DNA of 63,344 nucleotides, filler included, from Collodictyon triciliatum (lineage: Eukaryota): the NCBI GenBank assembly GCA_043381765.1. It is 7 parts of 7 records of this genome, joined end to end, with 100 filler letters (N's around TTAATTAATTAA, not from the genome) between each part and the next. Parts side by side here need not be neighbours in the genome. Positions count along the whole stretch, not along the records: positions 45,314 to 54,280 come from JBHJMP010003215.1; 6 more parts are not named here. The stretch is one strand, 5' to 3'. Each line of letters opens with the position of its first letter. The stretch's first letter is position 1. This document shows positions 803 to 63,069 of the stretch, piece by piece. The notes below the pieces were generated by a model. That model ran no database searches. It was not told the DNA's origin and was given only the letters and a program-made list of their open reading frames with translations. The position numbers were made by a program, and so were the translations under genes.

Positions 803-2640
803 ATGGTTTGTTACCTTCTACAATGCCGCTCGCTGTTGCAACAATGTCACAAACAGACAGACCGCAACCACTCTTAATATACTCTTTCACGAAAAAAAAA
901 GTATGCTGTCTTCTTACAATTATACACTCTTTCATTATTATTTTATACAAAATCACGACAAAATCCCTGTCTGAATCTTTTCATAGGCTCTCTACTCCAT
1001 CCGCAACATATTGATACTCGATGCTGAAGGGAAGCGGGTTCTCTGCAAATACTACTCGCAAGATTTTCCCACGCTCCAGGTACTTACTTATAGGCGTTCG
1101 ACTCAAGACTAACCAAATATTTTGAACTATATATGTGTGTAATATGAACGATTATTTCATTAAAAACAATTGAATTGAAGGCTCAGCAACAATACGAAAA
1201 AAATCTTTTCGCAAAAACACACAAAACACCAGGTGTGTCAATTTCCTTGCCCTCCTTTTTTTCATTTCATTTCCATTTCTTTTTCTTTTATGTTTCTTTT
1301 ATGTTTCTTTTATGTTTCTTTTATGTTTCTTTTATGTTTCTTTTATGTTTCTTTTATGTTTCTTTTATGTTTCTTTTATGTTTCTTTTATGTTTCTTTTA
1401 TGTTTCTTTTATGTTTCTTTTATGTTTCTTTTATGTTTCTTTTATGTTTCTTTTATGTTTCTTTTATGTTTCTTCCTTCATCGACTATACTCATTTTTTT
1501 CATTCGATGTAAAGTCATAATATCACTATCTACTTATTGCGTACTCGACACAAATATAACCTTTTATCAAATAGATGGCGAGGTCATCTTCTTTGAGAAT
1601 CTGGTCTCCGTTTATCGAACCACTGCTGATTTATACATTTACATGTCCGGTGGTAGCGATGAAAACGAAATCCTGTTGATGAATTCTCTCGGCACATTAT
1701 TTGAAGCTCTGACCACTCTTTTGAGGTTCATAACTGTATTTATTGTGTGTGTTTTTTTTTTTCTTTATTTCTTTTTTCACTCGATTTATCTTTCGCTTTT
1801 TTCTTTCAAATCCTCTAATTTTGGCTCCGGGTCTGGTTGAAACAAAAAAATGCATGTTTACTTTCTAACCTAACACGGCTATTTAATGCGCCATAGAGGC
1901 CAAGTGGAAAAACGCGTTGTACTGGACAACTACGAGCTTCTGCTTCTAGCAGTCGATGAATTAATTGATGGCGGGTGCGAACCTCTTTACTTTTTTCATA
2001 CATGCACACATGCTTTTGTTGAGATTGGTTTTTTTTCTTTTTCTTGTTTTTTGTTTTTTTTTGTTTTTTTTTTGTTTTTTTTTGTTTTTGGTTTGTTTTT
2101 TTGTTTGTTTTTTGGCTGGATTTATTTTATTTTATTTTATTTTTGGTAATGTATAAAATAAATCCTTACAAATGAATAAACCAATAAAAGCATCATCGTC
2201 GAGAGTGAAGCGTCCGCACTCGTTCAAAAAGTCACTATGCGGTCCGAGAATGATCCACCCTCGACGGAGCAAACTTTGACCCAAGTAAGAGTATATCATT
2301 CACACGCGATTTCACGTTTGTTGAGAGGAAAATGTTCCGCTATTGTAAATCTGTTTATTCATTTTCTTTGATAAATTCGATTTGATTTTTTGCGCGTGCT
2401 TTTGATTCCTTTTTTCATTTCTCTAATGGTCTATTCATTGTTTGTTTGATTTTTGATTTTTGATTTTTGATTTTTGATTTTTGATTTTTGATTTTTGATT
2501 TTTGATTTTTGCTTTTGATTTTCGCTTTTGATTTTTGCTTTTGATTTTTGGCTGATTGGTTGTTTGGTTGATTGCAATCACAATAGGCTTTGCAAACTGC
2601 AAAGGAGCAGATGACAAGAGCTCTTCGTCAAGGGAACTAA
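803..2640 (+). CDS. COPZ1: Coatomer subunit zeta (spliced, 7 exons)
   Basis: GT-AG exons join in frame: M|ALYSIRNILILDAEGKRVLCKYY..|AQQQYEKNLFAKT..|DGEVIFFENLVSVYR..GGSDENEILL..|GQVEKRVVLDNYELLLLAVDELIDGG|IIVESE..EQTLTQ|ALQTAKEQMTRALRQGN-TAA. Typical zeta-COP motifs. Confidence 0.93.
1285..1475. repeat. Intronic minisatellite (TTTTATGTTTC)n
   Basis: Tandem 11-mer inside a COPZ intron. Confidence 0.9.
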
Positions 2641-3354
2641 AGCAGAAGAGAAAGGAAAGAAAAATAAGGCGATTGAATAAACTTGAAAAGAATGAAAAAA
2701 CGACATCTCCTGAACTGAGAACATACACAACAAAACCATGGACGACACTCTAAAAATAATGATGAATCTTATTTCGCATATATGAGTAAATTGATAAATA
2801 TTATTTCGAGACAATAGAGCCTACCATCACTGTTTAAAGGAGATGAGGATGAGAAAAAAGGCAAAGAAATAGGTCACAACCAGAAAGCAGCATCGCAATA
2901 GGTCTGTCCCGAAGAGTTCCGCCAGCCACTATCAGCAGCGCCTTCAGAGACCATCATTTCCTCAACTTGATTATCTGTTAGCCTTAATCTCAAATGATAG
3001 TTTATTTTTGCTCCATAGCACCATCCACACCCACCGCGTCAAAATCACAACGCAGCGCTGTCAATCTTTCCCCCTGCTTCGTTGCGGCTCCGCACCGGCG
3101 TTCTGATTGCGCGATGACGCTGTCGGGCTTGGTTTGGGGTTGACACTCTTTTCGGACCACACTCGCGCCTGCAAACGCGGGGGATTCGGCTCGGTTGCGT
3201 GTGTGGCGGATTCCTTCATCGCTTCTCTCGTTGTCGCTGCGGACGTGGAAATCTGAATCCGCTGTGTGGTCCACTCTCCGATGCAGCGGCCGAGCGGCTG
3301 GTCTGGAAAGGGTGGTTGAGTGTCGGAAGCAGCAGGAGACTTGCGTATCTTTAC

Positions 3355-3565
3355 TTATGTATTTTTATGTCTTTTTTTTATGTCTTTTTTTATGTCTTTT
3401 TTATGTCTTTTTTTATGTCTTTTTTTTATGTCTTTTTTTTATGTCTTTTTTTTTTGTTTTTTTTTTTTTTTTTTTTTTTTTGTCTTTTTTTTTATGTCTT
3501 TTTTTTTATGTCTTTTTTTTTATGTCTTTTTTTTTATGTCTTTTTTTTTATGTCTTTTTTTTATG

Positions 3566-3628
<63 letters not shown>

Positions 3629-3745
3629 CTTTTTTTATGTCTTTTTTTTTATGTCTTTTTTTATGTCTTTTTTTATGTCTTTTTTTATGTCTTTTTTTAT
3701 GTCTTTTTTTATGTCTTTTTTTTATGTCTTTTTTTATGTCTTTTA
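3355..3745. repeat. T-rich simple repeat (Tn-ATGTC)n with poly-T
   Basis: Directly visible; source of spurious Phe/Lys-rich ORFs. Confidence 0.9.
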
Positions 3746-3814
3746 AATCTTTTAAATCTTTGTTCTCGTTGTTGTTGTTTGGTCTATATGGCGGATGGGC
3801 GCTATGCTGAGGGT

Positions 3815-6177
3815 TCACTGCTTCTTACTGAGTTTCTCGTTTGGTCTCGCTGCATCGGGGCTCTGTTGCAAAAGGGGTGTAAGCGCCGACTGCGTCCGTT
3901 CGGGCCTGTTCAGTGTTCTACCGTCTCGATTTACAGACAAAGTAAACACTGTGGTGATTGTAGCTCCTGTGGTGGTCGACGATGGCTTTGCAATCGCCGG
4001 TGGAGTCGTCATCACCAATGGCAATTGTTTTGTCGTTTTTGTTGGGCTTGGAAATGATGTAGTTGATGATGACGGTGCTGATATGGGTTGTCCAGTGAGC
4101 GAATTCGGCGCACGATGGATAGGCTTCTTTGTTGCTGATGATGTTGCGAGTAGAACGGGGCTATCTGAAGCACTTGATGGCGGTGGTGTGGTTGACTCCT
4201 TCGCGAGCCGAATGGTAACTAACGGGATGGTCTCTTTCACTTTCAAAGTATCTGCAGCTGATACGTGAGTCGATACGTTTGTTTGTGGCTGTGGCTGTTG
4301 TTGTGGTTGTGTTTTCATTTGTGTTTTCTCTGGCTTCAGTTTGATTGTGATGAATGACGAGGGTGCAGTGGGGTTTGTCTCGGATTCAGGCGCGGCTTCT
4401 GCTGATGCTCTGGCTTCACTCGATGAATGATTAGACTCTACGACCTTGGTTTCATCAGTGCTGTTAATTACCTGCTTACGACGATACACAGCGCCATTCG
4501 CAGCATATGTTCTATTTGATCCAGCGGTCTTTGCGTTTGTGTTTGCGTTTGCATTTGTGTTTGCGTTTGCGTTTGCATTTGCGTTTGCGTTTGAGACTAT
4601 TTTGTCTTGTGTAGATTTGGTTCTCTCATCTGCGCTATAATGCTGGTGTACTTTTCCTTGTTCTGTGCTTTGTGGGTGACTCACTCGGTCTTGTGACTCT
4701 GATACACGTTCATTTCCCTGCAGGGGTTTGCGTGAATCGGGCGTTTTGCGTGTGCGCTGTTGAGAGAAAGACTCCTGATCAATATGGCTCGTATGTCTTT
4801 GTTTGTTAGAAATTGATATGGCTGGCTCAGTAGTATCATTTGTCTGGTAGATCTCTTTGGTTTCTGAATGCTCTAGTGTGGTGGCAATCAAAGACGTAGG
4901 GTTTGCATGATGCTCATTCGGATGCAAAGGTAGTGTAACCGTTTCAGTAGTTTCTGTGGAATTCGAGCTTCCTTTCAATATTATAATTACTTCCGGATTG
5001 ATGATGCCCGTTTTTGCACGATGTGCCTCTTGCTTTTTTGGCTTTTCGGTTCTGTGGGATACGACTGAGGTGCCCATCTCGGATGTCTGCTGTTGAGATT
5101 CAGTGGTATTTTTAGGGTCCATTTCTTTGATATTTTCATTTGGTGATTCGTTCTTTTCATTTCGCTGCCCTTTTCGTCTCGATTTTCTCCCAGAAATCTG
5201 TAATATTGGGCTACCTTCTGCCAAAGTTTTTGTGATTTCCTCTGTCTCGATGGATTTAGTTACATCCAGAACTTTGGATTCGAGATTTAGGACAGCTTTA
5301 TCGCTGGAAAGTTGTTTAGTCTCGCCCTTTTTCTCTTCCAGTTTTTTCATTAGTCTTATGCTTACCTGCTTCTGCTCTTCTTTAGCTCTCTCCTCGCGCA
5401 GTCGCATTTCTTCGGCCTTTTTCCGCGCTTGAACAATCATGAATGTCTTTTGGTCTCTTACTGCGTTGAGTTCCTCTTCTGACAGCGACGGGACTTGTAA
5501 GTCATGTAACGTATTGTTACTATCATCGACAGTTTCGAAATTCAGTGTTCTACTCTCGTTCAGATAGTTCAATCCGCTTCTCCTTTCCGTGTTTGTTTGG
5601 CGTGTGGGTGTCAAGCCGACTTTCTGAAGCTCCTTTTCACGAATTTGCCGCGCCTCAAGCTCTAGCCGTTCTCTTTGCTGTCGTTCTAAGTCTGCCTTTC
5701 TTTTCTTTTCTGCCAAGAAATGAAGGGAATGGAGCGATACCGATGATTCATTGAGGTCGCTATGATTATCTCGGCTGATTTATTTATTCAGAAAAAATAA
5801 TCAGTAAAGTGTGAGAGAAAGATGGAAATTATGATAAGTTTAGCTATTCTTACTGGAGTGAAATGTTTCTGGCATCAACAACAAATTATAGGAAGTAAAA
5901 TGAAAGAAATTTGTGTTAAGTATTTTATGGCTTATGATTGCAACGAAAACGGTAATAAAATGCTTTTGAACGGTAAAACCAACCTATCCCTCGACCATCT
6001 ATCGGGGTCAGTGATGGGACTCGCTCTGGTTGCTTTATCCAAATAAGAGTCTGTTGCATCAGGCTTCTTTTTACCATTTCGTCCTCTTCGTTGTCCTTCA
6101 TTCTCCTGTCGGTCACCGGAGCCTGCACCGACAAAAATATAGGGAAATATTCACAACATCATTCACTTATTGAAAAA

Positions 6178-15200: not shown

Positions 15201-15873
15201 TAAAGGATGGTCGGGTTAACGGGGTATTATCCGGTATTCAGCGCTTCATTTGCCAATATATGCACAAACACAAATGACATCCTTGATAATATGAATAAGT
15301 CAAAAAGTTAATACCCAATTTAAATTCATGCGAACTCAATCTCTTGTAATATTGACATAATTTATGTATTCTCTGCCAGTGTCACGTGTCTTGGGCGATG
15401 GGTTTTTGCACCCTCTCGTAAGCAGTGAGCCCCATATCACAGTCACTGACTTACTCCTTGGAAATCCCTATGTACAAGTCGACACTGAGAATCCTATAGC
15501 AGACATTTTAGATGAATTCATCATTATTGCCTGCGACGGGCTTTGGGATGTCTTGTCCGATTCCGAGGCAGTCTCACTGGTTCATTTCTCCAACTATTGG
15601 GACCATCCTGAGCTCGCTGCACAAAATCTGCGCAATGTGGCCTACGAAATAGGTAGTACAGATAATATCAGTGTCATGGTAGTGTCCCTCCGCCCACCAA
15701 GCACAGCCCCTACAAACTCATCCCTTTCGATTCAAAGTATCAACCAACAATCCAAAGTGCAAACCCCGGCACAAGCCAACCGCTCTCCAAAGAGCATGGA
15801 AGGTATTTCCGATACTCTGGCAAATAAGGCAATATCGGTGGTCACAGAAGTTGAGTCTGGTCAGGAGTCGTAG
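12272..15873 (+). CDS. LRR (RNI-like) plus PP2C protein phosphatase with N-terminal myristoylation motif (spliced)
   Basis: MGGLVSK start; LRRs LNSLDLSCNPLGDDGV, LQHLNLSY, LRNLDLSGN; PP2C motifs GRRSSMED, GLFDGHGG, GTTA, ASAGDSRIVL, SRDHKP, GRVNGVL, SRVLGD, IIACDGLWDV, GSTDNISVMVV. Confidence 0.9.
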
Positions 15874-18292: not shown

Positions 18293-19846
18293 ATGAAGTA
18301 CGGCGTGGCATCCTCGGATAGCCTACCAGAGTTTACCAGTTCCAACTATGAAACCGCAGCCCCATATGCCAGAGGCCTGAATGAAGATGATCACATCACG
18401 GAAGAAACCTCTCTGTTACCCAAGGATGAGGCCGCCCCAAAGCCCCTTGCCTCAACGTCCTCGTCCATCTTCAACTTGACAAACACCACTGTGGGTGCCG
18501 GAGTTCTCACCATCCCTTACGCACTTAACAAGACAGGTCTCTAATCCATACAAACAAAAAACCATCCTAATTGTTCGATTGCCAACCCTGTTTTCATGGG
18601 GAATGTTGATGGCGGATCAAAAATAGGTATTTTTCTGGGCGTCGGCTTGATGCTTCTGGTCTGCTTCATGGCAGGCACTTGCCACTTGCTGCTGATCGAT
18701 TTGGCCAACAAAACCGGCTGTCGTACCTATCGTGAATTGGCTGTGTATACATTTGGTCCGAGAGCTGGGAGATACATGGACTCTATCATTATCTTTTACA
18801 CCACCGGCACATTAATCGCCTATCCTATTATTATCGGTAGGCTCAACCTGACGTTTTTTTTTTCCATTCGTGAAAGAATTGTACAGGAAACAATACCCAA
18901 TTCGTCCGCATTTTGGTTTGAGTATTACTGACATTCAATTTATCTAATAGGTGGCAACTTGCCTGATGTCTTCCGTGAAGTAGTGGAAGGATGGTTTGGT
19001 GGGGATTGGCCATTCACTGAGAACGAAGGACGTGCGTTGCTTATGTGCCTTGTTATGTTTATGGTGATTGTTCCCATTTCCATGCTACCGAATCTTGATG
19101 GGCTAAAGCATACCAGTTTGATGGCTATTCTCTGCATCTTTTACCTCATGATTGTCATCCTGTATACATATGGAGCTGGAACAACAGAGAGCGAGGAAAA
19201 CTCAGTTGTTTATGTCAATGGGGAATTTGAAATGTTCCTTGCCTTCCCACTTATATCAGTGTCGTTTACGGCTCACTATAACGTTCTTCGCATCTACTAC
19301 GAGTACGAAAATCGTAGCCGAGAGCGCATGAAGCGTGTGATTATCTTTTCCATGATGATTATCTTGACCCTTTACTTGCTGATTGGTGTCCCTGGATACT
19401 TGGCTTTCCGAGCAGACGTCGAAGATGACATTTTAAGCAACTTGGATGAGACAAAAGAATGGAACGTGTTGGCCAAACTCGGCCTTGTTCTCACCATCAT
19501 CTTTTCTTATCCTCTTGTTGTCTTTGCCACTCGCAGTTCGCTCCATAGCTTGATTTACCCAGACCAACCCCAGCAATTGAAGCGTCTCAGAATCTTGACG
19601 ATCTGCCTGGCTTCGGTCTCACTACTGGTCGCCATCTTCGTCCCGGACATCAGTGTTGTCTTTTCGTTCACGGGTTCGTCCTTTGGTGTGCTTATTGTCT
19701 ACATCCTTCCTTCGTACATGACTCTGCGTGTCTCTGGCAGGGATTGGAAAGACCCCTTGAACCGCAAGCCTTTGGCAATATTCGTTGCTGGCATTCTGAT
19801 AGGCTTCCTGGCGTTCACTGTGGCCATCTACAACGTTGCTTCTTAA
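18293..19846 (+). CDS. Amino acid transporter, SLC38/AAAP (Aa_trans) family (3 exons)
   Basis: SSIFNLTNTTVGAGVLTIPYAL, LKHTSL, AFPLISVSFTAHYNVLRIYYE, GYLAF, FSYPLV; many hydrophobic segments; acidic dileucine EETSLL near the N-terminus. Confidence 0.93.
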
Positions 19847-25485: not shown

Positions 25486-27070
25486 TTACATGCGGTCGAT
25501 GACGGCCTCGATGGTCTTGTACTTGAGAATCAGCTCGTAATTGCGGTTGACGTCGGTGAAGCCCATCGTGCAGAGAGTCTGAGCCTTTGCCCAAGCCTCT
25601 CTATTATAGTTCTGTATACAAATTCATTTCAGCAACAACAACACCAACTAGAGGAAGGAGAAATTAAAAATTATAATAAAATCCAAGGGAAAGTATGTAA
25701 GGGAAAATACACAATGAGGGTAGAAAACTCTATAGGGAAACTCACCGCAGGTATTTGAGGAGACGGTTGCTGGGCACGGGGCTGCGCGAAGGGAGCAGTG
25801 ACGTTCACTTTGAGCTCGAGACCTGCTCCAAAGAATTCGCCAGAGGGAGCCATCAAGCGGTAGAGGAGGGTGTAGGAGCCTGGAGTGCTGGGTGCGGTGA
25901 ATGAAACATTCACTTGCGTGGTGGCGCCAGGCTCTGCTCCGCTGATTGCAATCGTGTTGGGTGCAGCCTTCACCTCACTATCGTTCGTTCGCTTCAAATT
26001 AAGAGGCGTAGGCCAAGAAATAGTTCCTGTATTCCTGATTTCAAAGGATTGCTGATACGTCCCACCCGGAGCCACTCTCTCACTTCCCCCCAGAAGGTTT
26101 ATCGATGCATTCAAATTCTGCAGGCTATATATCATTTACAAGTTGCTCAAAATAAGCTAAATGATTGTAATATTCGCCTTATCTTATGCAAATAATTCAG
26201 ATGTGTAAGTGTACTGATTGGTCCAATCTGAAACCGAGGATGTTAATCCGATCAGTTAAAAGGTATTGATAAGACGTAATGGCAAAACTTACAATGGAAC
26301 ACTTGAGGCGGTATTCGATGCCATCGCGGGCTCATTCAAAGGTGAGAACATCGAAACATACCCAAACCCTTCTCGGGTGATGGCTTCTGTTGATGTAGAA
26401 GGAGGTAAAGTGTTTCTTGGAGTTGACATGGACGGGGATGCCGCAGGCTTTGCTTGAGGTGCATCAGTCGTAATGCTCACGCTGGCAACTGCACTCGACG
26501 AGTTGGAGGGAACAGCCCAGGAGGCCTGAAACACATTTTCCGCATCTGCACGCGCAACACATCTACTCCCTACTCTCACTGGGGTCACAATTGCATTGAA
26601 GGTGTGGCTTGGGTCATGGAAGCGATCAGTTCCTTGGACTTTCAGACAAGCTTCGCACAGGTCATAGTCCGGGCAAACAGCACATTTATGGCGGATGCCA
26701 ACAATGGGATAGCTCCCACAGTTATCACAGGTTACGCCATAATGAACTATGGAGATGGTCTGTGTCAGTCAGGTTAAATGATATGTGTGATACTAAGACG
26801 CTACGAGAATAAAGATATTGGGATGGAGTGGTTGTTATTTACCTTTCAGGGCCTCATTTGGTTCGTTATCGATTGCTTCCATCCTGCGGACAAACTATAT
26901 AGGGAAGGGAGATATGTGAGAATAGCTTGCACTAAGGCAACTATGAACCCAATAGAGGAAAGAAGAGGCATGAGAACGACATGTACCAGCTGAATGAGGC
27001 AGCGAATATTTTTGGTTAATTTTAGGAAAGGTATTCGCAGGGCGATAGAAAAGACCCACCTCAACAAGGG
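25486..27070 (-). CDS. NBR1-like selective autophagy receptor (ZZ zinc finger, FW domain, UBA); 5' truncated
   Basis: VHYGVTCDNCGSYPIVGIRHKCAVCPDYDLCEAC (ZZ); VAPGGTYQQSFEIRNTGTISWP..GEFFG (FW); LCTMGFTDVNRNYELILKYKTIEAVIDRM* (UBA). Confidence 0.85.
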
Positions 27071-35596: not shown

Positions 35597-35644
35597 TCGC
35601 TCTATGCGGTTGGCCATAAGCGTCCTTTCCCTCCTTTAATTATC

Positions 35645-36144
35645 CTTTCTTTTTTTTCTTTTTCTTTTCCTTTTCCTTTTCTTTTTCCTTTTCCTTTTCT
35701 TTTTTTCTTTTCTTTTTTTGTTTTTTTGTTTTTTTGTTTTTTTGTTTTTTTGTTTTTTCTTTTCTTTCTTTTTCTTTTCTTTCTTTTTTCTTTTTTCTTT
35801 TTTCTTTTCTTTTTCTTTCTTTTTCTTTTCTTTCTTTTTCTTTTTCTTTTTCTTTTCCTTCTTTTTTCTTTTTCCTTTTCCTTTTTTGTTTTTCCTTTTC
35901 TTTTTTCTTTTTAATTCTTTTTCTTTTTTCTTTTTCATTTCTTTTTTGTTTTTGTTTTTTGTTTTTGTTTTTTCTTTTTCTTTTTGTTTTTTCTTTTTCT
36001 TTTTCCTTTTTCTTTTTCTTTTTCATTTCTTTTTTGTTTTTGTTTTTGTTTTTCTTTTTTCTTTTTTCTTTTTTCTTTTTTCTTTTTTCTTTTTTCTTTT
36101 TTCTTTTTTCTTTTTTCTTTTTTCTTTTTTCTTTTTTCTTTTTT
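35645..36144. repeat. Polypyrimidine simple repeats at contig end
   Basis: (TTTTTC)n and (TTTTTG)n. Confidence 0.9.
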
Positions 36145-36244
36145 NNNNNNNNNNNNNNNNNNNNNNNNNNNNNNNNNNNNNNNNNNNNTTAATTAATTAA
36201 NNNNNNNNNNNNNNNNNNNNNNNNNNNNNNNNNNNNNNNNNNNN
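36145..36244. other. Artificial contig spacer
   Basis: N44-TTAATTAATTAA-N44. Confidence 0.98.
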
Positions 36245-44759: not shown

Positions 44760-45213
44760 CGTCTAATGCAATACAATGTGTGTTTTCTTATGATTTTTAA
44801 TTGGTTGGTTTTTTTTATAATGGTCTAGTTTTTATGTAATCTTCAATTTTTATTTTTTTTCTTCATTTCAATTCATACGGAATGAGGGTGTTTGATATTA
44901 TTCGGTTGTTGTTGTCATTCAAGTTTTTTTTTTATTGTTTTTGTCGTTGATTTTCAGCTTCTTTTTTTTTACGATTCAATTTTTTCAGGGTTTTTACACA
45001 AGGATTTTTGTATGCGGGGTTTTATTTATTTATTTTAGTTTTTGTTTTTCTTTTGTTTTTTGTTTTTTGTTTTTTGTTTTTTTGTTTTTTTGTTTTTTGT
45101 TTTTTGTTTTTTTGTTTTTTGTTTTTTTGTTTTTTTGTTTTTTTGTTTTTTGTTTTTTTGTTTTTTTGTTTTTTTGTTTTTTTGTTTTTTTGTTTTTTTG
45201 TTTTTTTGTTTTT

Positions 45214-45313
45214 NNNNNNNNNNNNNNNNNNNNNNNNNNNNNNNNNNNNNNNNNNNNTTAATTAATTAANNNNNNNNNNNNNNNNNNNNNNNNNNNNNNN
45301 NNNNNNNNNNNNN
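45214..45313. other. Artificial contig spacer
   Basis: N44-TTAATTAATTAA-N44. Confidence 0.98.
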
Positions 45314-48155
45314 GCTCTTGTTGTAAACGACTTGCTCGACCCCGTGCAAAAATACTGTCGCTCAGACAGACTTGCAGGCGGCTTCCTTGCACGGGTCTTC
45401 CTGGACTTACGTGCAACTCGGGGGTTTTTACTGCGTCAGTGTTGGAACCAGAAGAGCTGACTGCAACTTGCGAAGCCTTCGACGGGTCTCGGTTCGTGTT
45501 TTCCATCAGGTGTGGGCATATGTTGACAATACCAGAGTCAGCGCACACACCAACCAGGCGAGACAGGTAATTAACAATGCTAATTATTATTGACAATGAA
45601 TTCCAGTATTGTGACTGAAATTTCTAAACTAATTCACCTCAATTCTAGTAATTATTTTGATATCCAGAAATGTTAGTCATCTATTTCTATTTTAAGAGCA
45701 GTCGTATCTATTTCCTTTTAAACATCAGAAAAGCACACGCGCCATTTAATGGTGCTGCCGCGCGTGTATAATCAGAAACAAGGGCAATTCCATGCACAGC
45801 GAGGCAAGCAAAGCCACCAGCATTAATGGTCGAGAAAGAACATAGAAGAGGCGCGACCTCTGCCGCCAAGAAGGAAGTTTTCATTACGATGAAAGAGAGA
45901 GAGCTACTCACGCAAACATCGACTCATAATGATATCCAATAATCTACAACATGATGGTTCCTAGCATGTGGGATCCACAGACCTTTCCACTCGCCGCCCC
46001 ACTTGTCATTGTTTCTCACTCAACACCAACTATTTACGACCAGAGACTGGAAAATCTGCACCAATTTGATTCTTGGCTAGCTGTGTTGATCTATCTTCCC
46101 TCACTTATCTCGTGAGGATTGCCCAAAGTGCATATAGAAAGAGGAAAAAGACTTTCCAATACTCAAATTTGTAGCTGCTTCGCTTCACTCTTCCTAACCC
46201 AATCATTATAAAAATGTGTATTACTTGTAACGACAACCTATGACGTATCAAAGCTCGCTCGTCTCATGAAAATATACACTCATATATTATTCAATAAGCA
46301 AACAAGTTGCTCCTTTTAATGAAAATACAACAATCAAATTCTGCCCAATATGGGCTCTGATCACCCTGAAGGGCTTTATATCTAGACTAATATATGTTTT
46401 AGCCGCCTCGACCATCCTATTCAAGTATTCTAAATCGCCACATTCGAACGAGGAAGTCCATTTAATTTTAAAAATGCACAACTCTATGAAACCACTGTAT
46501 CTCTCATCACTTAGTTGCATCACAACTGCGATAACTGACGTTTCCACATAAGTAGATGATGAACTTATCTCTATACTCAAAATCTTATCATGGCAAGGAG
46601 TGTAGTGGATGAAGTGATGGTCAGCTCATTTAATTAATGATTAAATATTTAACGCATGCATACAAAAGAGTTTATAAATTGAAATTATGAGAAATTTGAG
46701 AGAACAATTCGGTTAAATTAAATGATAAGCCCATATTGGGAGCACCATATTGCCGAAACTTGACCACGGGATATATCTTTCTATTCATAGCATCGTTAAT
46801 GCATTCTTTCGTAATAACATTTCAAGTAGGGGGTTGGCCTTTTCAATTGCATCATGCTCCACTATTCCCAACCATACGGTGCATAGCGCTCCTGGGTCAT
46901 AGCTATCCTTTCTATAGAATGTAACATAATATAATAACAACTACATAACATGCAAAGATCTCCTGAATTTTCTGATACTATCTTCTTTCTCTTGGTTAAT
47001 GGAGTATCAAGGGGGATTGATTTCACAGCTCCTATGGTAAAATATATCAATAGGAATGTGATCGATGTATATATTGAATAGACAGGCTTTTGAATGTAAT
47101 CTTCATTTTTGGTATAAATATTGCGTTTGTTCAATTGTGAATCACAACATGCAATTTAAGATGCAATTGTATTTATACTACCACGAATTTTTTTCAACCA
47201 CTTTATATCTTAAAAACAACATTTGTAAACCATTTACGTCACGAAGTTGCAATGAACTCTTAATGTCAAGTGGAATATAATTTCTCTTTTCCAATATCGA
47301 AAATATGAGCCTAATGTAAATGCAGATACAAAAATTGGTCACCTTCTCATTTATACGATATATATATATGATAGCGCATATATAATTATCAACGTATGGC
47401 AAAGAATTACGATGATTTGTCTAGTAAACTATAAATAATCTGCAAATTTTTATTACGATGGCTGCATGAAATACCTAATGCAGCCTATTTTATGGAATAG
47501 AGAAATATTATAGTCAAGGCCTGATTTATCTCTAATAATATCATATATCATTCATTGAGTCAAATGTTTATAGATCAAGCAACCAAAATCTATCACTAGG
47601 TCTTATTTTTGGATTCAACCAAGGTGGGAGTTGAAATTCTCGAGGATCCGATGGAGATAGAAGGGGTGAGCTCTTGTACAATCATGAACCTAGAACCCTC
47701 AATAGTCTATTGTAGATAAGTAATGTTGAAAACACTTTTTTGGGGTTCTGTAATGTAAAATCTTTTTGAACTGGTCATTTGGGTACCCTTCAAATACTTG
47801 CATAAATTAGGACAGTATTTGTTCCGATGTATTGGAGCAAAAACAGCCTTCCATGGATTTGTGCTGCATAGAATGTATCTTTTCTAGGTTTGTACAGCTA
47901 TGACAATCAATCATAAGAAAAAAAGTAATTAGAATTATCTTAATTTTTCGTGGATCTTTCATTCTCTTCTTATACGCTGAATAACTAATGAAGATATGCC
48001 AAAAATTATAGGGAGCTTATCAAACATACTGATGGTAACTGAATAGATTTAGAAAAACGGAACATATGTAAAATTAATCCAAGCTAAAATAATTTGTTGA
48101 TAACTTTTTAGGATGCTTTGAATAATATTATTATAGATAACACAATAAATTTCAG

Positions 48156-51100
48156 GTAATTCTGAATGGCACGTTCCTGAATCAAACAAATCAACATCTT
48201 GTGACAACCATGGCATTATATTACAAGCAGGAATTATCATCCCCCCTAATGTGAACCCCAACGTGCTCAATCACATCATATGCGACGATCAACTCCTTAG
48301 CCTTGCGTATCGCAGGAATCACCTGTATGAACTGTGTCCAACACTAAGAGGAGGTGGAAACTCCTCTTCCAGATCGGCTCGATCAAATACCGCTGCTCCT
48401 CCCCATACATCGGGAGCTCAAGTAGAAACAACAGATGAGATTTTAGAAATTTTGTCCAAAATAAACGATGCTTATCGCTCAGCAGCTAACTCATCACCGG
48501 ATTCAAATCACCAATTCTTATCACTACAGCTGATGCAAGTCTTAACATATCAGATACTAAAAAGTGCCAACAAAGAAGAGGACATGAGGGTTGTTGAAAA
48601 GTTAGCATCTCTTCATATCTCAATTGTAGAGAAGTATGGCCAAAATATCCGTGAACAGGCTATTGTTGCAGAAAAACAAGCAGCCATACAGAGAGATACC
48701 ATTCGGGAGCAAGCTTCCTTAATTGAAAAGCAAAGTGAATCAAACCAAAGACTGATTCAGGGCCTTATAGACCAGGTCTCACGATTGCCAGTATCTCAGC
48801 AAACTCCGCAAGTGATTGATTCATTGGTGCGCGTTATTTCACCACAAGTAACACCATCAAGCTCTAGCCAAACAAATGCAGCCATATTTTCAACCGCGCT
48901 GCAATCGCAACTTCATGATAATCTTGTCACCAATGCAAGTCAACAATGCACCGTTAATATTACTCCTACTACTCATTTTTTTCCAACAAATCCTGTTGCT
49001 GTTCAACCAAAACCTCACGATGCTTCGCAAAACCCACCTGAGCAAGTAACAGCACCGACTACACTGGCATCAAATCCGTTCAGAGAAAACCAACTGAAAA
49101 CACAGTCCGGTAGCAGTGCGACAGAGACTCCACAAAGTGCTGGTAATACAAATCTTCAGGCAAATGCAGGAACAAGTAGTCCAACAAATCTCCCAGGAGA
49201 TACTCACGCAAATGCTTCCGAGCTTGCCAAAGCCATATTTGAGCAACGAGACCAACAATTTGGAAAGAATACCGATACAAAAAGAGCTCTTCGCATAATC
49301 AAGCTATTCATGAAGGAACAAACTGCCGATGAGAAGAGCTTGGATGAACTCACTGCACTGGCCCCAGCAGGATCCAAACTCATTTCAGAGAAGCTGATAA
49401 CTGCTATTGGCACAATGATGGATAAAAAAATGGAAAAGCTGGACCGCCTGCTAGATGCTTTGAATATCGTTGTGGGGAACACATTGAAGGAGGATTTCGA
49501 CCACACGCTGCTAGCTCAAGTCCTAGATATTCTGATAGACCGTGTCGGAACTCTCTTTGCTTCGGACGAGGCTTTATGTCAAAGGATATTGGACAGTCTG
49601 ATTTCCATTCTAAATTCGCTCCATCTTTCTGGCGCATCAGGAATTCCTGAAGAAAAATACAAAGCATACAAAGAGACATTTGGACAGAGCTGGATTGACA
49701 AGAAAACTGAGACTCACGGGGAAGAAATCGAAAACAAAATGCAGATTCAATATGTTCAGGCCAAGAAATCTTTGTTTTGTGAGCTACTGAAGCATATTGG
49801 CGATGGTCAGAGTTCTGTCGTGAAGAATCTGAAAATAGCTGGCAGAGTTGGACTCGGTCTATTCAACGCTGCATCTGCTGCTTTCTCTTTCGACATCAGT
49901 GGCACTCTGGCATCATTGCAGGAGGTTGCGACCGCTGTTGGAGAAATCGACATCAAAAAGGATTGGTTTACATTCTATCAAAAATTTCGCGTCAGTTTAT
50001 TCGTCGGTGCCGATGAGGCGAAAAAATCGTGGGATTCTCAATTTTCAGGAAAGAAAGACGAAGTTGGAGAAACCCTGGCATTCCTAATTATTGATACAAT
50101 TTATGAATGCTATCTCCACAAACACAATAGCTCGGAGGGACAAAAAGTCTACAAATTAATCGAGTATATCACACGTCATGAAAAATGGCTGAAAAGTGAG
50201 GTTATTAACCGATTTGTGGAATCAAAAAAGCAAGAAATGGCAGAATATAAGCCAAAAGAGTCAAAATTACCTACTGCACTTTTTGAAAAAGCTGGTAAAG
50301 ACGAAAGAACAATTCAAGACATCATCGAGAACATTAAGGAGGAGACCATTCGAAATGAAGATTTCAATAGTCGTTTTAACACATATATTCCCGGTCAAGC
50401 CGAAAGAATTGCTGAGAAAGGAAAGAAGTTTGATGCCCAAGAACGCATCCTGAATTTCATCACATCTGGAAATGAAAAAGTGCTGCTCATACTTGGCGAT
50501 TCTGGCTCTGGGAAATCATTGTTACAGCAGTTTATTGTGCGATTGCTTTGGAAAAACTATGAATATGGAAAGTCGCATATTCCATTGTATGTTGCGCTTA
50601 CTTCATTGGAAAAGCCCAGAGAAAACGCCATCGAAGAACTGCTTCTTTCTGAGAGTAAAAATAGCTTCTACATCCCAGACTCTGATTTTCGAGTCGAACA
50701 TGTTAAAGAATTGAAAAAGATGAAATTCGTATTTTTCCTGGATGGTTATGATGAGATTGAAGATAGTTGTACATCTTTCTACAAATCAAATATGCTTGAA
50801 GAATGGCCCAACTGCAAGTTTGTGATTGGATGCCGCAAGCAGTTTTTGGACAAAAAATCTCAGTACCAATCACTTTTTGCACCCAAAGCTAGTCATGGAT
50901 ACTCTCTGGATGAAATATATCTGAGACCTTTTGAAACTAAGCAAAGGCTTGATTACTTCAACAAGTATGCTGAGAGAAATCCTATTGAAGGATGGGAAAA
51001 AGGAGAAAAGTATGAGGAAGAGTTGAAGAAAATCAAGGAGCTTGATGAATTGACTGTCACTCCGTTTATGATTTTCATGGCAGCCACCACCCTGCCGTCC

Positions 51101-54100
51101 ATACTGAAGGAAAGAGTTGAGTCGAAGTCAAATTTTAATGCAAAAATTCTGCGAACAGACTTTTTGGACAAGTTTTCGAGGAGATGGTTCGAACGCGAAA
51201 GAGAAAAGCTTGAAAATAATTTGTCATTGAAACAAAAAATGCCAGAGGATTTGGATAGCCTTTTGGGAAGAAAATGCAAAAAAATTGCAAAGTTGATGCA
51301 CGAAATAGAACGAAAACCTTCCCTTCAATATTGCTACGTCGAAGGTGAATTACCAACTAACCCACAATACGGAGAATTTTTCAATCCAAATCATGGCCAT
51401 ACCCTCGATGATGGGAAAACGCCTTCTTATTCCATATTTGTGCTGCGATGTGCACCCATTAAGAAATCTAGTGCCACGACGTATGAGTTCTTCCACAAAT
51501 CGCTCTACGAATTCTTTGCTGCTGAGTACATCAAAGATGAAATCAATAGTGTCGATGCGGGAAATGAAGCTTCTGTCCAACCATCAACTGAAGCTCAAAA
51601 TGTTGCAACTTTCTCTGAATCCGCGAATTCTATGCCTGAAAAATCTGATGCGAAATCACCAAGTTTCAAGCTTTTCAATGCTGTTCATTCTGTGATGAAA
51701 TCGAAAGTGAAGACGAATGTTCTGGATAAAAAGCTTGAGCCTGCCATTCTGCTCAACCTGAGTGAAAAAGTGAACAAAGACAGTGCCTACAAAGATAATC
51801 TCTTTTCAATCATTGAGCAGTCCAAGGCAGATGCAAGCAAAGCGCAAGCTGCGTCGAATGCCATCACAATTCTGAACTATGCTGACGTTTCATTCAGTGG
51901 CGTGGATTTCAGAGGGATTCAAATTCCAAATGCCGACATGTCACAGTCTGTTGCTGATGGTGCTGACTTCACAGGCGCCAACTTGGAGGGTGTTTTGTTC
52001 TATAATGCGTGCATTTCAAACTGTGTTTTTGACAATGCGATTATGAAAGGCGTTAATTTTGGTCGCTTGCCTTTGTTTTTGGGTCATACAAAAGCTATCA
52101 ATAGTGTTTGCAGTATTCAAGGACCGAATGGTGAAAACTGGTTGGCTTCTGGAAGTTATGATAAAACAATACGTATTTGGGATGTAGCCACAGGGAACCA
52201 AATCAAAACATTAGAAGGGCACACAGAGCCAGTCAATAGTGTTTGCAGTGTTCAAGGACCAAATGGTGAAAAATGGCTGGCTTCTGGAAGTAGTTATAAT
52301 ACAATATGTATTTGGGATGTAGCCACAGGAAACCAAATCAAAACATTAAAAGGTCATACAAGCGGTGTCAATAGTGTTTGCAGTATTCAAGGACCGAATG
52401 GTGAAAACTGGTTGGCTTCTGGAAGTAGTGGAGATGAAACAATACGTATTTGGGATGTAGCCACAGGAAACCAAATCAAAACATTAGAAGGTCATACATG
52501 GTCTGTCAATAGTGTTTGCAGTATTCAAGGACCGAATGGTGAAAAGTGGCTGGCTTCTGGAAGTGGTGATAAAACAATACGTATTTGGGATGTAGCCTCA
52601 GGAAACCAAATCAAAACATTAGAAGGACATACAGGAGCTGTCAATAGTGTTTGCGGCATTCAAGGGCCGAATGGCGAAAAGTGGCTGGCTTCTGGAAGTT
52701 GGGATAAAACAATACGTATTTGGGATGTAGCCACAGGAAACCAAATCAAAACATTAGAAGGTCATACAAGTGTTGTCAATAGTGTTTGCAGTATTCAAGG
52801 ACCGAATGGTGAAAGTTGGTTGGCTTCTGGAATTTGGGATAGCACGATACGTATTTGGGATGTAGCCACAGGAAACCAAGTCAAAACATTAGGAGGTCAT
52901 ACAAGAAGTGTCTATGGTGTTTGCAGCATTCAAGGACCGAATGGTGAAAAGTGGCTGGCTTCTGGAAGTGGTGATGAAACAATACGCATTTGGAATGTAG
53001 ACACAGGAAACCAAATACACAGCCTGAAAAAATCAGAAGCGACGTACAATGAAAAGAGCCAATTGGTCATGAATGATAAACCAGAAGTCATCGCAGTATT
53101 CAATAGTACATGTGATGCGATGAATGTGATTGATACGAGCAGAATAATGAACGTGAGAACTGTTCGGATTATCGGTCCAAGAACACTGGAAGCTGCGAAT
53201 ACTCGTATCAACAGAGCTGAATTGGGTGTAATGAACAAGAAACTATTCCTGCAAGAAGGTGCTGCTTCCTTTGATGCGGACTTTGTTGCATATTGTGAGC
53301 AGGGAAAGTTCACCACGTCCCAGGCTGAAATGATGGCTGAATGCTATATTAATGGATGGAGTGTTGAAAAGGACATCGAGAAAGCTATCGAGTGGCTAAG
53401 AAAGGCTGAAAATTTTGATAAATTGAGGCAATTCGCACAACAATGCTCAAAGAAGGCATTCAATGTTTTGAAAGAAATGGCTGAAATGAAATATGAATAT
53501 GGCGGATACATATATACACAGGCTGTCTCTATTGTTGCTGAATGCTATGAGAATGGATGGGGCGTTGAGAAGGATACCGAGAAAGCTATCGAGTGGCTTG
53601 GAACTGCTGAAAATTTTGACAAATTGAAGCAACTCGCACAACAAGACTCAAAGGAGGCATTCAGCGTTTTGAAAGAAATGGCTGAAATGAAGAATAAATA
53701 TCGCGGATACAAATATCCACAGGCCGTTTCTATTGTTGCTGAATGCTATGAGAATGGATGGGGCGTTGAGAAGGACACCGAGAAAGCTATCGAGTGGCTA
53801 AGAAAGGCTGAAAGCTTTGACAAATTGAAGCAACTTGCACAACAAGGCTCAAAGGAGGCATTCAATGTTTTGAAAGAAATGGGTGAAATGAAAACATGGG
53901 ATGAAAAATACAAATATCCACAGGCTATTTCTATTGTTGCTGAATGCTACGAGAATGGATGGGGCGTTGAGAAGGACATCGAGAAAGCTGCTGAATGGAA
54001 TCTATTGGCAATAAAAGCAGCTGAAAACTTTGACAAACTGAAGGAACTCGCACAACAAGGCTCAAAGGAGGCATTCAATGTTTTGAAAGAAATGGGTGAA

Positions 54101-54280
54101 ATCGTAGACGAGGATTATGGTGAATACAAATATCCACAGGCTGTTTCTATTGTTGCTGAATGCTATGAGAATGGATGGGGTGTTGAGAAGGACATCGAGA
54201 AAGCTGCTGAATGGAATCTATTGGCAATAAAAGCAGCTGAAAACTTTGACAAACTGAAGGAACTCGCACAACAAGGCTCA
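48156..54280 (+). CDS. NLR-like STAND NTPase: leader ending LRGG, helical region, NACHT, pentapeptide repeats, 7 WD40 repeats, Sel1-like repeats; 3' truncated, upstream exons likely
   Basis: Uninterrupted >2000-codon frame opening at candidate acceptor TTCAG (48155); Walker A GDSGSGKS (50495-50518), Walker B FVFFLDGYDE, TPFM, YEFFHKSLYEFFAA, pentapeptide ADFTGANLEG, WD40 52082-53020, SLR-like AECYENGWGVEKD. Confidence 0.92.
52082..53020 (+). repeat. Seven near-identical 135-bp WD40-coding tandem repeats
   Basis: Unit GHTxxVNSVCSIQGPNGExWLASGSxDxTIRIWDVATGNQIKTLE (45 aa; one 46-aa copy). Confidence 0.95.
53336..54280 (+). repeat. At least five near-identical 201/216-bp Sel1-like-coding tandem repeats
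   Basis: GCTGAATGC anchor at 53336, 53537, 53738, 53939 and 54155; the contig breaks inside the array. Confidence 0.9.
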
Positions 54281-54380
54281 NNNNNNNNNNNNNNNNNNNN
54301 NNNNNNNNNNNNNNNNNNNNNNNNTTAATTAATTAANNNNNNNNNNNNNNNNNNNNNNNNNNNNNNNNNNNNNNNNNNNN
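54281..54380. other. Artificial contig spacer
   Basis: N44-TTAATTAATTAA-N44. Confidence 0.98.
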
Positions 54381-55007
54381 TTTATTTTGTTTTATTTTGT
54401 TTTATTTTGTTTTATTTTGTTTTATTTTGTTTTATTTTGTTTTATTTTGTTTTATTTTGTTTTATTTTGTTTTATTTTGTTTTATTTAGTTTTGTTTTGT
54501 TTTATTTTGTTTTATTTTGTTTTTTTTAGTTTTGTTTTGCGTCGTTGGGATACGCATTCGTTGCAGATGCGTGACGTCACAGATTGCATCCTGTGACGGA
54601 GCTATTTCTAGTTCATGATGCCAAATTTGCACCAGTTCACGATGTTGGTTACGAATTTTTCTGAATCGGCAAGATTCACGGAATAACCGCGATAAAAAAA
54701 CCCCGATCAGATTAGACCAGATCAAATCAGATCCAATCAGATCCGATCCGATCCGGCCTACAGCGAAGTGGAGGAATCTCCAGACACAATCGTCACAAAC
54801 ACCAAACGCAAATACTTTCCGACTGAACAGAGAGCGGCTAACTGTCTCCTACGCAGTATTTTCGGCAATGAAGCCCAATAACCCTGCACAATTAGAAAGC
54901 TTACGAGGGCCACCGCGCTCTTTGACCTTTTGCCTGTGTGAAAAGCATATGATCACCAAATAAACCCTTTTCCTTTTTTTTTATTTGCAACCGCGATGCA
55001 CAGGACA

Positions 55008-60514: not shown

Positions 60515-62870
60515 TTACTTTCCTTCCATGGGGAGCCTATTTGGAGCCACGTTTCCTAGAGTATGGTCGATTTTCTCGACAGGATATGGCAATCTTTGGG
60601 AGCATTTCGAAGATGTGGATGACATCACAAGTGACTCGCTTCCTTGTGCTGGGTTGTAATCAAGTTGCTCCAGCAAATGCTCGACATCTTGTGCACAATT
60701 ATGAATACTGGAGATGGTGCAGAGCTCGTTTGAGCTTTTGAATGCGCTGATGTTTGCTGTGTTGTGAGCTTGTGGTTTTGGTGTGTAGCCAACAGTGTCG
60801 GGTGAATATGCAGGACTGGCCTCTTGAGTGTACAGTTCTGGGGCGCATATGCCAAAGAGGGGTGGCTCTGCAAAGACAGACTCAATCTCTGTTTCCAAGT
60901 CATCCTCCAAGATACCAATACCGTGCGGTTTAATTGCTGGCGGGCTCGGCGAATCTGTAATCTCGACATGCTTACTAAATGAATGTCCTGTGTGTTCTGC
61001 TGGTCGACTTTGAAAGGAAGGGGATACTTGCTGTCTGTATGTCTCTAGGTACTCTGGGCAAGGGGCTGACACATGAGATGATAATTTCGAGTCGATGCCA
61101 AGCGTCTCTGTTATTGTGATTGGACCTTCATCCACTTGGCCTGATATGATTTTGTTTGGTGATCTGCCTTCACTGTCGCGAATCTCTTGTATATCTCTGA
61201 ATGGCGCTGGAATCGCTGCTGTTGAGCCAACAGGGTTGCTTTTGAGCACTGTAAAGTCCTTTGAGTTTTCAAGGAGCTCTGCAAGAAAGTCCTCAAATTC
61301 TTGCAGCTGGCTGTCCTGCGATTCGTAGCATGTGCCTTGAGGATGGTGAGTTGTTTTTGACAGCCTCTCTTTCGAAACCATTAAAGAGTCATTCGAAAAG
61401 TCTAATGAGCACAAGATAATCAATTTATCGTTTAAATGTAAAACCAAGTAGATAAAAATTAATTTAATGATTATAAAAAGAATAAATTTTAAAGGTGGGG
61501 GATTCTGGTATGTGCAGCCCAACAAAAAGAAAATTGACTTGATTATGAATTACTCTTCAAATCTGTGAAATAAAACTATTGGTAGACCTTTTTGCTGACC
61601 TGTTGCGAGCTCGCTGATGGCATGTAAAGCATAATCGGGTACGCTGCAGGTACCTTGCCTCTGGTTGATATTGGCAAAGTCGTTTGTAACCGCACGAGAA
61701 TAATTAATGTCTTGTGTTTGAGCATGTGGTGTATGGTAGGCATCAGAAGCTGAGTTTTCACATTCCGGTTGAATAGGGAAGTGTGAACGATAAGAAGGAT
61801 TGTGTTCATGCCAGAATATTCGAGAGACATTCGCAGCTTCGGGATTTGTATTATTCGAGTCTGAACCTTCTCCGAGCTTCCTTTTCCTTGCGCGCAGATA
61901 GTCCAACCCGGCTGCATCTGATTAACAAGAAGGAGCAGCGAAAGAAAAAAAAAACCATTTTATTGCCATGTCGCATGAGTGAGTGCGAGGCATGAATGAA
62001 AAAAGAAAAAAAAGAGAGACAGTTTGTGTTGGGGATAGAAGAAAAATAATTCAAGAGAGGAGAAGAAGAAAGGGAAGAGTTGACCGCGTATTTTATGGCT
62101 AATTATGCATGCCAAAGACATGACACAAGTGTAGGACACGTACCTGGAAGGAGCAGAAGACGCAGGAAGTGGAGAATGCGGTCGACTCTGCGGTTGGTGT
62201 CAGCGTGGCGGCGTCTCCCTTCGTGGATGTCATCTGCAACGGCCTGAGCGAGCTGCCGAGTCGCACAGCTTTCCTGTCGCAGACGCACAAGCTCCTGGGT
62301 GAGGATGTCGCGGTCTCTACGCAGGCAGGCGATTTCGTCTGTGGGGCCGAAGTTTCCTATTTCCACGGGCCGCTGGGCTGCTGCGTCGGTTGGCATGGGC
62401 ATGGGCACTGACATGGACATTGACAGCTGAGTCTGGGCCTGGGTGGGATGCGGCCTGCGACGGGCAATGGCGCCAAGCAGGTCTGGGCGGCTGCGCACAA
62501 AGGCCGGGTGTGTGAATTCCCAGCGGTCCGGGTCGCGCTTGTGGAAGCCGTATGTGTTGAGCTGCCGCACAAAGGACGAGAAGTTGCTGTGCTTGAAGAA
62601 CTTTGGCAGTACATCGCGCGAAAACTCCAGCGGCTGATGCACGACAAAACTGTGCCCTGTGGCGTCCCACGAGACGGTCTCGCCCGCGGCATTCACAATC
62701 CCGTAGAGTTTGCTCACAAACGGCGCAATCGACGTCTCCTTCCATATCCGCCCCGAAACCGCCCCTCTTTGCTCGCCTTTCGCTCGTGTCTCTGTTGCGC
62801 AGTCGTCTCTCGTGTCGCGTGGTTGGGCCGTTGCGCGTCCTGTGCTCCACGCTAGTGGGTCTGACTGCAT
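60515..62870 (-). CDS. Heat shock transcription factor (3 exons)
   Basis: DBD APFVSKLY..SWDATGHSFVV..LPKFFKHSNFSSFVRQLNTYGFHK..WEFTHPAF; HR-A/B heptads; NLS-like RARKRKL in exon 2; acidic S/P-rich tail. Confidence 0.92.
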
Positions 62871-62934
62871 CGCTCTGTTCTCTTTATTAGTAATGCCTCT
62901 TGTTTGTTTCTGATACCTCTCCTCTCTCTCTCTC

Positions 62935-63027
62935 TCTCCTCTGTTCTCTTCTGTTCTCTTCTGTTCTCTTCTGTTCTCTTCTGTTCTCTTCTGTTCTCTT
63001 CTGTTCTCTTCTGTTCTCTTCTGTTCT
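62935..63027. repeat. Tandem repeat (CTGTTCTCTT)n upstream of HSF
   Basis: About nine copies of a 10-mer. Confidence 0.9.
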
Positions 63028-63069
63028 TGTCATCATTTATATATTAATATTAATATATAAATGATGACA
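63028..63069. mobile_element. Perfect 42-bp palindrome, second copy of the TG..CA mini-element
   Basis: TGTCATCATTTATATATTAAT-ATTAATATATAAATGATGACA; same termini as 29453-29498. Confidence 0.65.

Follow-up and report, generated by a model that had tools for sequence, protein, structure and literature searches.

A ubiquitin-tail-like LRGG-G site at the end of the leader of a NACHT protein from Collodictyon triciliatum: a candidate masked acylation signal

Does the tetrapeptide LRGG, the same four residues that form the C-terminal end of ubiquitin, mark a place in a large NACHT protein of the protist Collodictyon triciliatum at which a leader is cut away and an N-terminal acylation signal is exposed? 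The DNA that raises this question, called the window throughout, is a stretch of 63,344 nucleotides (nt), filler included, which joins seven parts of seven records of assembly GCA_043381765.1 end to end with 100 filler letters between each part and the next; positions 45,314 to 54,280 come from JBHJMP010003215.1, and all positions given below count along the whole window. The gene concerned lies on the plus strand and contains an open frame from 48149 to a run of N's at 54284, or 2045 codons, the product of which is referred to as P0001 or the window protein. Tentatively, and with confidence that stops a little short of even, we read LRGG and the glycine that follows it as a masked N-terminal acylation signal that would be exposed by cleavage after the second glycine of the tetrapeptide.

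The motif was read directly from the DNA. The codons CTA AGA GGA GGT at 48344-48355 (+) spell LRGG, beginning about 63 codons into the exon that starts at 48156, and the codons GGA AAC TCC TCT TCC AGA at 48356-48373 (+), directly after them, spell GNSSSR; in translation, a Ser/Thr/Ala/Pro-rich stretch continues past GNSSSR. The sequence described for this site in a preliminary description of the locus, namely LRGG, GNSSSR and then a Ser/Thr/Ala linker, is thus what the DNA encodes. As in a protein fused behind a di-glycine tail, LRGG stands right before the remainder of the polypeptide, both in the window protein and in its homologue P0004 (residues 169-172), and the proposed cut falls after the second Gly. 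Six-frame translation of the whole window yields only two copies of LRGG, the other being in a frame that a stop soon interrupts. By composition, 0.019 copies of LRGG are expected in P0001, LRGG was seen in 346 of 20000 residue shuffles and the extended pattern LRGGGxxx[ST] in one of 20000, but the motif was picked after the sequence had been read, and these figures alone are no proof of function. GNSSSR is a candidate N-myristoylation signal provided that its Gly becomes N-terminal: it matches the consensus of N-myristoyltransferase (NMT), as does GCGVSS of P0004, when a PROSITE-type pattern is applied as a regular expression. The preliminary description was right about this match as well, although 18 of the 125 glycines of P0001 fit the pattern, which is weak on its own.

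Whether LRGG is translated at all depends on the structure of the gene upstream of the large exon. A 355-nt contig from a public sequencing run, X1, maps to the plus strand of the window as five segments (47282-47315, 47574-47665, 47811-47887, 48012-48034, and 48156-48284) that sum exactly to the contig and are separated by four gaps bounded by GT..AG; a single-base mismatch is present at 47315. The contig is a spliced transcript, and its splicing across GT..AG introns argues that it is RNA. The first segment (47282..47315, +) is at least part of an upstream exon of 5' untranslated sequence and is joined 47315/47574 to the exon at 47574..47665 (+). In the spliced frame of the large exon, this second exon contains a stop, TAG at 47597-47599, followed by the first ATG, at 47651-47653, which is in frame with LRGG and is the proposed start. 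A 77-nt coding exon at 47811..47887 (+; GT..AG joints 47665/47811 and 47887/48012), in which a second in-frame ATG occurs at 47853, and a 23-nt coding exon at 48012..48034 (+), also bounded by GT..AG joints, complete the three small coding exons that the transcript adds 5' of the large one. The latter (48156..54283, +) is the last visible exon and remains open into the assembly gap, leaving the C-terminus incomplete; its start at 48156, joined by the contig to 48034 over a GT..AG intron, is exactly that given in the preliminary description.

LRGG ends a leader of 105 residues, counted from the ATG at 47651 (86 if counted from that at 47853), and it is translated. The large exon contains no in-frame ATG ahead of LRGG, and its first in-frame Met is residue 129 of P0001. 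Between the ATG at 47651 and that Met lie 11 further ATGs, 10 of them out of frame, which makes initiation 3' of LRGG improbable. LRGG is also covered by another X1 contig, at 48343-48496, and no splice joint is reported within 48156-48560. The start codon at 47651 is thus upstream of the motif and no joint removes it, so that neither of the two outcomes that the preliminary description had allowed for, a motif that is spliced out or translation that begins downstream of it, was found. Separately, a 23-codon upstream open reading frame (uORF) begins at ATG 47305 (47305-47373 and 47574 onward, spliced), is read in frame 2 of the spliced translation and ends 17 nt 5' of the main start; it may regulate translation.

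The motif recurs in one relative. When residues 1-760 of P0001 were compared exhaustively by phmmer with 1.84 billion representative proteins, three hits were obtained: P0002, P0004, and P0003. The first two were derived from transcripts of the CRuMs flagellate Diphylleia rotans, which lives in fresh water, and share the overall architecture of P0001. The third, a ray "mucin-2-like" protein that matched the leader at an E-value of 2.7e-14, was rejected, as its score was inflated by 16 near-identical repeats. Residues 169-181 of P0004 read LRGG-GCGVSSQRK, and apart from the initial residue no Met occurs before residue 191. Recurrence among paralogues, as envisaged in the preliminary description, was therefore found in one of the two closest homologues: P0004 has LRGG-GCGVSS, but P0002 has neither leader nor motif. 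When the regions preceding the P-loop in P0002 and P0004 were shuffled, LRGGG arose in six of 20000 trials and LRGGG together with the acylation pattern in three of 20000. Upstream of the P-loop in 118 distant relatives (Mortierellaceae fungi, Hexamita, and some bacteria; 24-33% identity over the NACHT region), LRGGG was absent from all 53279 residues, the shuffle mean being 0.037. Word-indexed protein searches with P0001 residues 1-480 returned nothing among proteins of near length, and those with P0004 residues 1-660 returned only P0004 itself among such proteins; two scans of metagenomes of the Joint Genome Institute (JGI), for which the queries were the leader and an aligned set of ARM-like regions, brought up no relatives.

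Apart from the motif, the two leaders have little visibly in common. Their best local alignment scores 37, a value reached by 21 of 2000 shuffles, and it was set aside as evidence of homology because the aligned segments lie at different distances from LRGG and are thus out of register with it. Alignments anchored at the motif and covering the last 30 and 45 leader residues of P0001 and P0004 did not rise above shuffles. Because the five residues LRGGG appear to have been kept while the flanking leaders diverged beyond alignment, we read the recurrence of LRGG-G as reflecting selective constraint, the more so as terminal branches in the NACHT tree measure 0.92 and 1.76 changes per column.

What follows the motif is also suggestive. 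The 20 residues after the candidate Gly include two Lys or Arg in P0001 and four in P0004, with no Asp or Glu in either protein. A GCG start is of the dual myristoyl/palmitoyl type, as in Src-family kinases and G-alpha subunits. Native MGCG[AS] starts occur in two of the 118 relatives, P0014 (MGCGAS), a Logan assembly protein with ARM_5 and NACHT domains, and P0045 (MGCGSA), from Hexamita inflata. P0004 is collinear with the ARM_5 (PF23948) region of P0014, and both P0014 and P0045 are collinear with P0004 downstream of GCG; the Gly after LRGG therefore matches the Gly-2 position of relatives that are predicted to be acylated. A predicted acylated N-terminus thus appears to exist in the family at the equivalent place, which is supportive, albeit after the fact.

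In the mechanism that we propose, the protein would be made with a 105-residue N-terminal leader ending in LRGG, and a protease that reads LxGG sites of the ubiquitin-tail type would cut after the second Gly, LRGG-G being a putative conserved endoproteolytic site. The new N-terminal Gly (of GNSSSR here and of GCGVSS in the Diphylleia homologue) would then be N-myristoylated, the Diphylleia homologue probably also being palmitoylated on its Cys, and lipidation would anchor the NACHT sensor to a membrane. We infer cleavage, the host or pathogen identity of the protease, acylation, membrane targeting, and a role in defence. Ubiquitin-specific proteases generally need the body of ubiquitin; because no such body is detectable in the leader, a sequence-specific protease of the host or of a pathogen is no less likely to act here than a standard deubiquitinase. 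For the leader itself, we favour a pro-piece or mask with no recognisable ubiquitin fold.

Several points weigh against a masked acylation signal. Beyond the choice of the motif after the sequence had been read, the evidence comes from two sequences, and the leader of one of them, P0004, is a transcript-derived open reading frame (ORF) call of odd, His-rich composition. P0002, the nearest relative of P0001, lacks a leader, and its sequence opens with MSRQV immediately ahead of its ARM-like domain. A candidate third case, P0066, in which LKGG-GSVPSK begins at residue 145, was rejected because chance can account for it: at least one such match arose in 87 of 300 shuffles. A FastTree phylogeny was built from 121 NACHT regions, those of P0001, P0002, P0004, and the 118 relatives (P0003, P0005, P0006, and P0007 being excluded as artefact or cluster duplicates). 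It gives the clade (P0004,(P0001,P0002)) a Shimodaira-Hasegawa-like (SH-like) support of 98, but terminal branches span 0.92 to 1.76 changes per column, FastTree warns that long branches meet, and both carriers of the motif fall inside that single clade. Taken with the freshwater metagenome runs in which pieces of the locus occur, the clade points to a relative of Diphylleia as the source of the window. MG-type starts in two of 118 relatives are near the eukaryotic background; only the shared GCG is notable, and that is post hoc. Ubiquitin-specific proteases normally require the ubiquitin body, and none is detectable in the leader. Finally, the RNA label attached to run X1 is a guess, and none of the runs listed as containing the locus is on record as RNA.

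The alternative that survives best is that LRGG-G is kept as a glycine hinge or binding motif, that no cut occurs, and that the Gly never becomes N-terminal or myristoylated. We consider this somewhat unlikely. Cleavage is, of course, something that we only infer, and three other members of the family, P0011, P0015, and P0024, keep a related L-x-G-G-[SA]-P, in which the Ser or Ala after GG looks like part of a structural turn and unlike an acylation site. Nor is L-x-G-G-[GSA] enriched in the family, four copies being observed against 3.9 expected, and for that reason it was also discarded as a family-wide boundary motif. A hinge leaves unexplained, however, the acylation consensus after GG in both proteins, the GCG that P0004 shares with the N-termini native to P0014 and P0045, and the full four-residue identity to the ubiquitin tail in both P0001 and P0004.

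P0011, P0015, and P0024 are clade mates of P0066 and have a common N-terminal module that ends in L-x-G-G-[SA]-P. The module is about 60 residues long, terminates in G-[KE]-F-[YF]-L-T-R-G-L-x-G-G-[SA]-P (P0011 60-95, P0015 50-85, P0024 55-90), and precedes ARM_5 in P0011 and P0015 or TIR in P0024. By eye, the window leader shares DN(H)G and L-x-G-G with this module, but its score against a hidden Markov model (HMM) of the module was -0.7 bits (E 12), and the identification was dropped; the same HMM also missed P0004 and P0066. A different N-terminus is found in many relatives of the Mortierellaceae type, which share the start M-[VL]-F-[GSNK]-x-[IVF]-[VI]-[STP]-S-[PH] (P0037-P0039, P0063, P0076-P0078, P0083, P0089, P0091, and P0097).

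A more elaborate proposal, rather unlikely in our judgement, is that the masked signal works as a protease-gated lipid switch in defence. The fast-evolving leader would be a tripwire: a protease of an invader, or a host enzyme activated by infection, would unmask the myristoylatable Gly, and the membrane-bound NACHT-WD40-Sel1 protein would start defence or cell death. LRGG would then mimic either the tail of ubiquitin or sites of the LxGG type that viral deubiquitinase-like or adenain-like proteases use, and the Diphylleia copy would again be palmitoylated as well. A Gly that escapes acylation could serve as a Gly N-degron instead. For the masked acylation signal as such, the protease tripwires of NLRP1 and CARD8 (PMC7857732; bioRxiv 10.1101/2024.06.24.600508) offer what appears to be the nearest functional analogy, since a sequence-specific protease is no less likely than a deubiquitinase to act on LRGG. 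The likeness lies in a fast-evolving NLR N-terminus with a protease site, here putative, and in a new N-terminal Gly that decides the fate of the protein. NLRP1 and CARD8, however, have FIIND (ZU5-UPA) and CARD domains, and the fate predicted here is lipidation, not N-degron degradation. At E up to 1, residues 1-1284 of P0001 matched 14 Pfam families, FIIND and CARD not being among them, and P0001 is therefore not a member of the NLRP1/CARD8 family.

Very unlikely, in our view, is that the leader is a strongly diverged beta-grasp ubiquitin-like (Ubl) domain that host deubiquitinases remove co-translationally, as they do in fusions of ubiquitin to ribosomal proteins, with the Gly constitutively exposed for myristoylation. 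In both proteins LRGG matches the tail of ubiquitin residue for residue, the residues ahead of it are strongly hydrophobic or beta-prone, and a low-confidence model of P0004 places a strand at 160-169, right before LRGG. Diverged ubiquitin-like domains, moreover, often escape sequence searches, a fact that counts in favour of such a fusion. Searches for the fold or family of the window leader used the part encoded by the large exon (exon 4; 48156..48355, +), the 38 residues from the upstream exons being analysed only in local scripts. That part has no recognisable family: Pfam gave no family at E up to 1, and a PDB phmmer search at E up to 10 returned a viral penton protein and plant O-methyltransferases and no ubiquitin chain. 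At E up to 10, Pfam gave no family, of ubiquitin type or other, for P0004 residues 1-204 or P0066 residues 1-169, and PDB phmmer gave no ubiquitin match for the leaders of these two proteins. Neither the window leader nor residues 1-148 of P0066 gave a usable match in the protein atlas. AlphaFold2 produced no readable fold for the 91 residues coded by 48158-48430 (mean predicted local distance difference test score, pLDDT, 40.1) or for P0004 residues 1-204 (pLDDT 30.1), and these values speak against a ubiquitin fold only weakly because the runs used single sequences. Ubiquitin is 76 residues long; the leaders have 105 (window) and 172 (P0004) residues and do not align in register. The degenerate ubiquitin-like fusion put forward in the preliminary description is therefore not supported. 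A constitutive cut would, in addition, gain nothing over a native Met-Gly start such as those of P0014 and P0045.

Least probable of all is that LRGG-G is one of many short patterns and recurs in P0004 by luck or as an ORF-calling artefact in a 5' untranslated region: the motif was indeed noticed only on reading, has just two carriers, and in P0004 follows a leader of unusual composition whose one Met before residue 191 is the first, but the test on P0004 postdates the hypothesis and LRGGG arises in so few shuffles (6/20000), and coding sequence is indicated both by the 172 codons that stay open ahead of the motif in P0004 and by a window frame that remains open across three introns.

Returning to a masked acylation signal, its components are known separately, as protease-unmasked myristoylation, ubiquitin-fusion processing, and NLR tripwires. 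BID is among the proteins that are cleaved by caspases and then myristoylated post-translationally. Others, such as huntingtin, are treated in PMC4200515 and PMC9880554. This caspase-dependent myristoylation seems to be the nearest chemical precedent: an internal Gly in an NMT consensus becomes N-terminal only after a cut, and membrane targeting follows, as is predicted here. It differs in that the caspase site is an Asp, whereas the putative site in question is LRGG, in a protist. Ubiquitin-RPS27a/RPL40 fusions (PMC10296562) and the processing of the FUBI-eS30 precursor (PMC8354635) resemble P0001 in having an N-terminal piece with a di-glycine tail directly before the mature protein. They carry a ribosomal protein as cargo, whereas here it is a 2000-residue STAND NTPase, with a leader of 105 or, in P0004, 172 residues and no detectable ubiquitin sequence or fold. 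Full-text literature searches for ubiquitin fusion, LRGG, myristoylation, and N-terminal glycine brought up, in the text portions returned, no STAND or NLR-like protein with an anchor behind a ubiquitin-tail site. If true, the proposal would offer a simple way in which an NLR-like protein could be activated or localised in protists of a deep-branching lineage (with CRuMs-type relatives), would link ubiquitin-tail proteases to lipid targeting, and would define a short portable module (leader-LRGG-G...) open to testing in any eukaryotic cell.

The remainder of the window protein is that of an NLR-like STAND protein, as the preliminary description had proposed: a NACHT domain with its P-loop lies between an N-terminal region and C-terminal repeats, and the 118 relatives agree with this assignment. 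In order, P0001 consists of the leader, the Ser/Thr/Ala linker, a low-complexity region, an ARM-like helical domain, NACHT, pentapeptide repeats, WD40, and Sel1, all on the plus strand. The ARM-like region (49277..50401) matches P0002 residues 51-436 at E 9.5e-19 and is the sole part of P0001 ahead of NACHT that has relatives; no Pfam model was reached for it at E up to 1. The NACHT NTPase domain (50480..50971, residues 778-941) matches PF05729 at E 2.4e-8, its 34.4 bits exceeding the curated cut-off of 26.7, and includes a Walker A sequence, GDSGSGKS, at 50495-50518 (residue 783), located by a P-loop regular expression. Pentapeptide repeats (PF00805, E 2e-6) occupy 51890..52000 (residues 1248-1284) and are followed by a WD40 beta-propeller at 52079..53107, for which seven repeats were scored (PF00400, E 1.6e-61), and by Sel1 repeats at 53246..54283, five of which were scored before the array is cut by the N gap (PF08238, E 2.9e-34). 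The core architecture is that of NACHT-pentapeptide-WD40 proteins with an ARM-like N-terminal domain, which in P0014 is ARM_5 (PF23948). None of those 118 relatives has LRGGG upstream of its P-loop, and the leader, the long low-complexity spacer, and the C-terminal Sel1 repeats are additions of the window protein.

The NACHT gene runs into a gap flanked by repeats, and its 3' end is missing. T-rich or phenylalanine-coding simple repeats stand beside N gaps at 1148-4057, 35620-36200, 45000-45214, and 54333-54500, and because such repeats flank several of the gaps, the assembly appears to be fragmented around low-complexity DNA. Beside an assembly gap, positions 45320-45539 reach a very high summed contig depth of 969 in X1 and of 31 and 76 in two freshwater metagenomes, with zero in the adjacent bins; the stretch is probably an element that exists in many copies or is expressed at a very high level. 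At its gathering thresholds, Rfam reported nothing in the window, 45320-45539 included. The neighbouring genes in the window are ordinary eukaryotic nuclear ones: they encode an HSF-type DNA-binding domain (62103-63029, -), an NBR1-like protein with ZZ and N_BRCA1_IG domains (25671-26768, -), a PP2C (15361-15873, +), and an amino-acid transporter (18932-19846, +).

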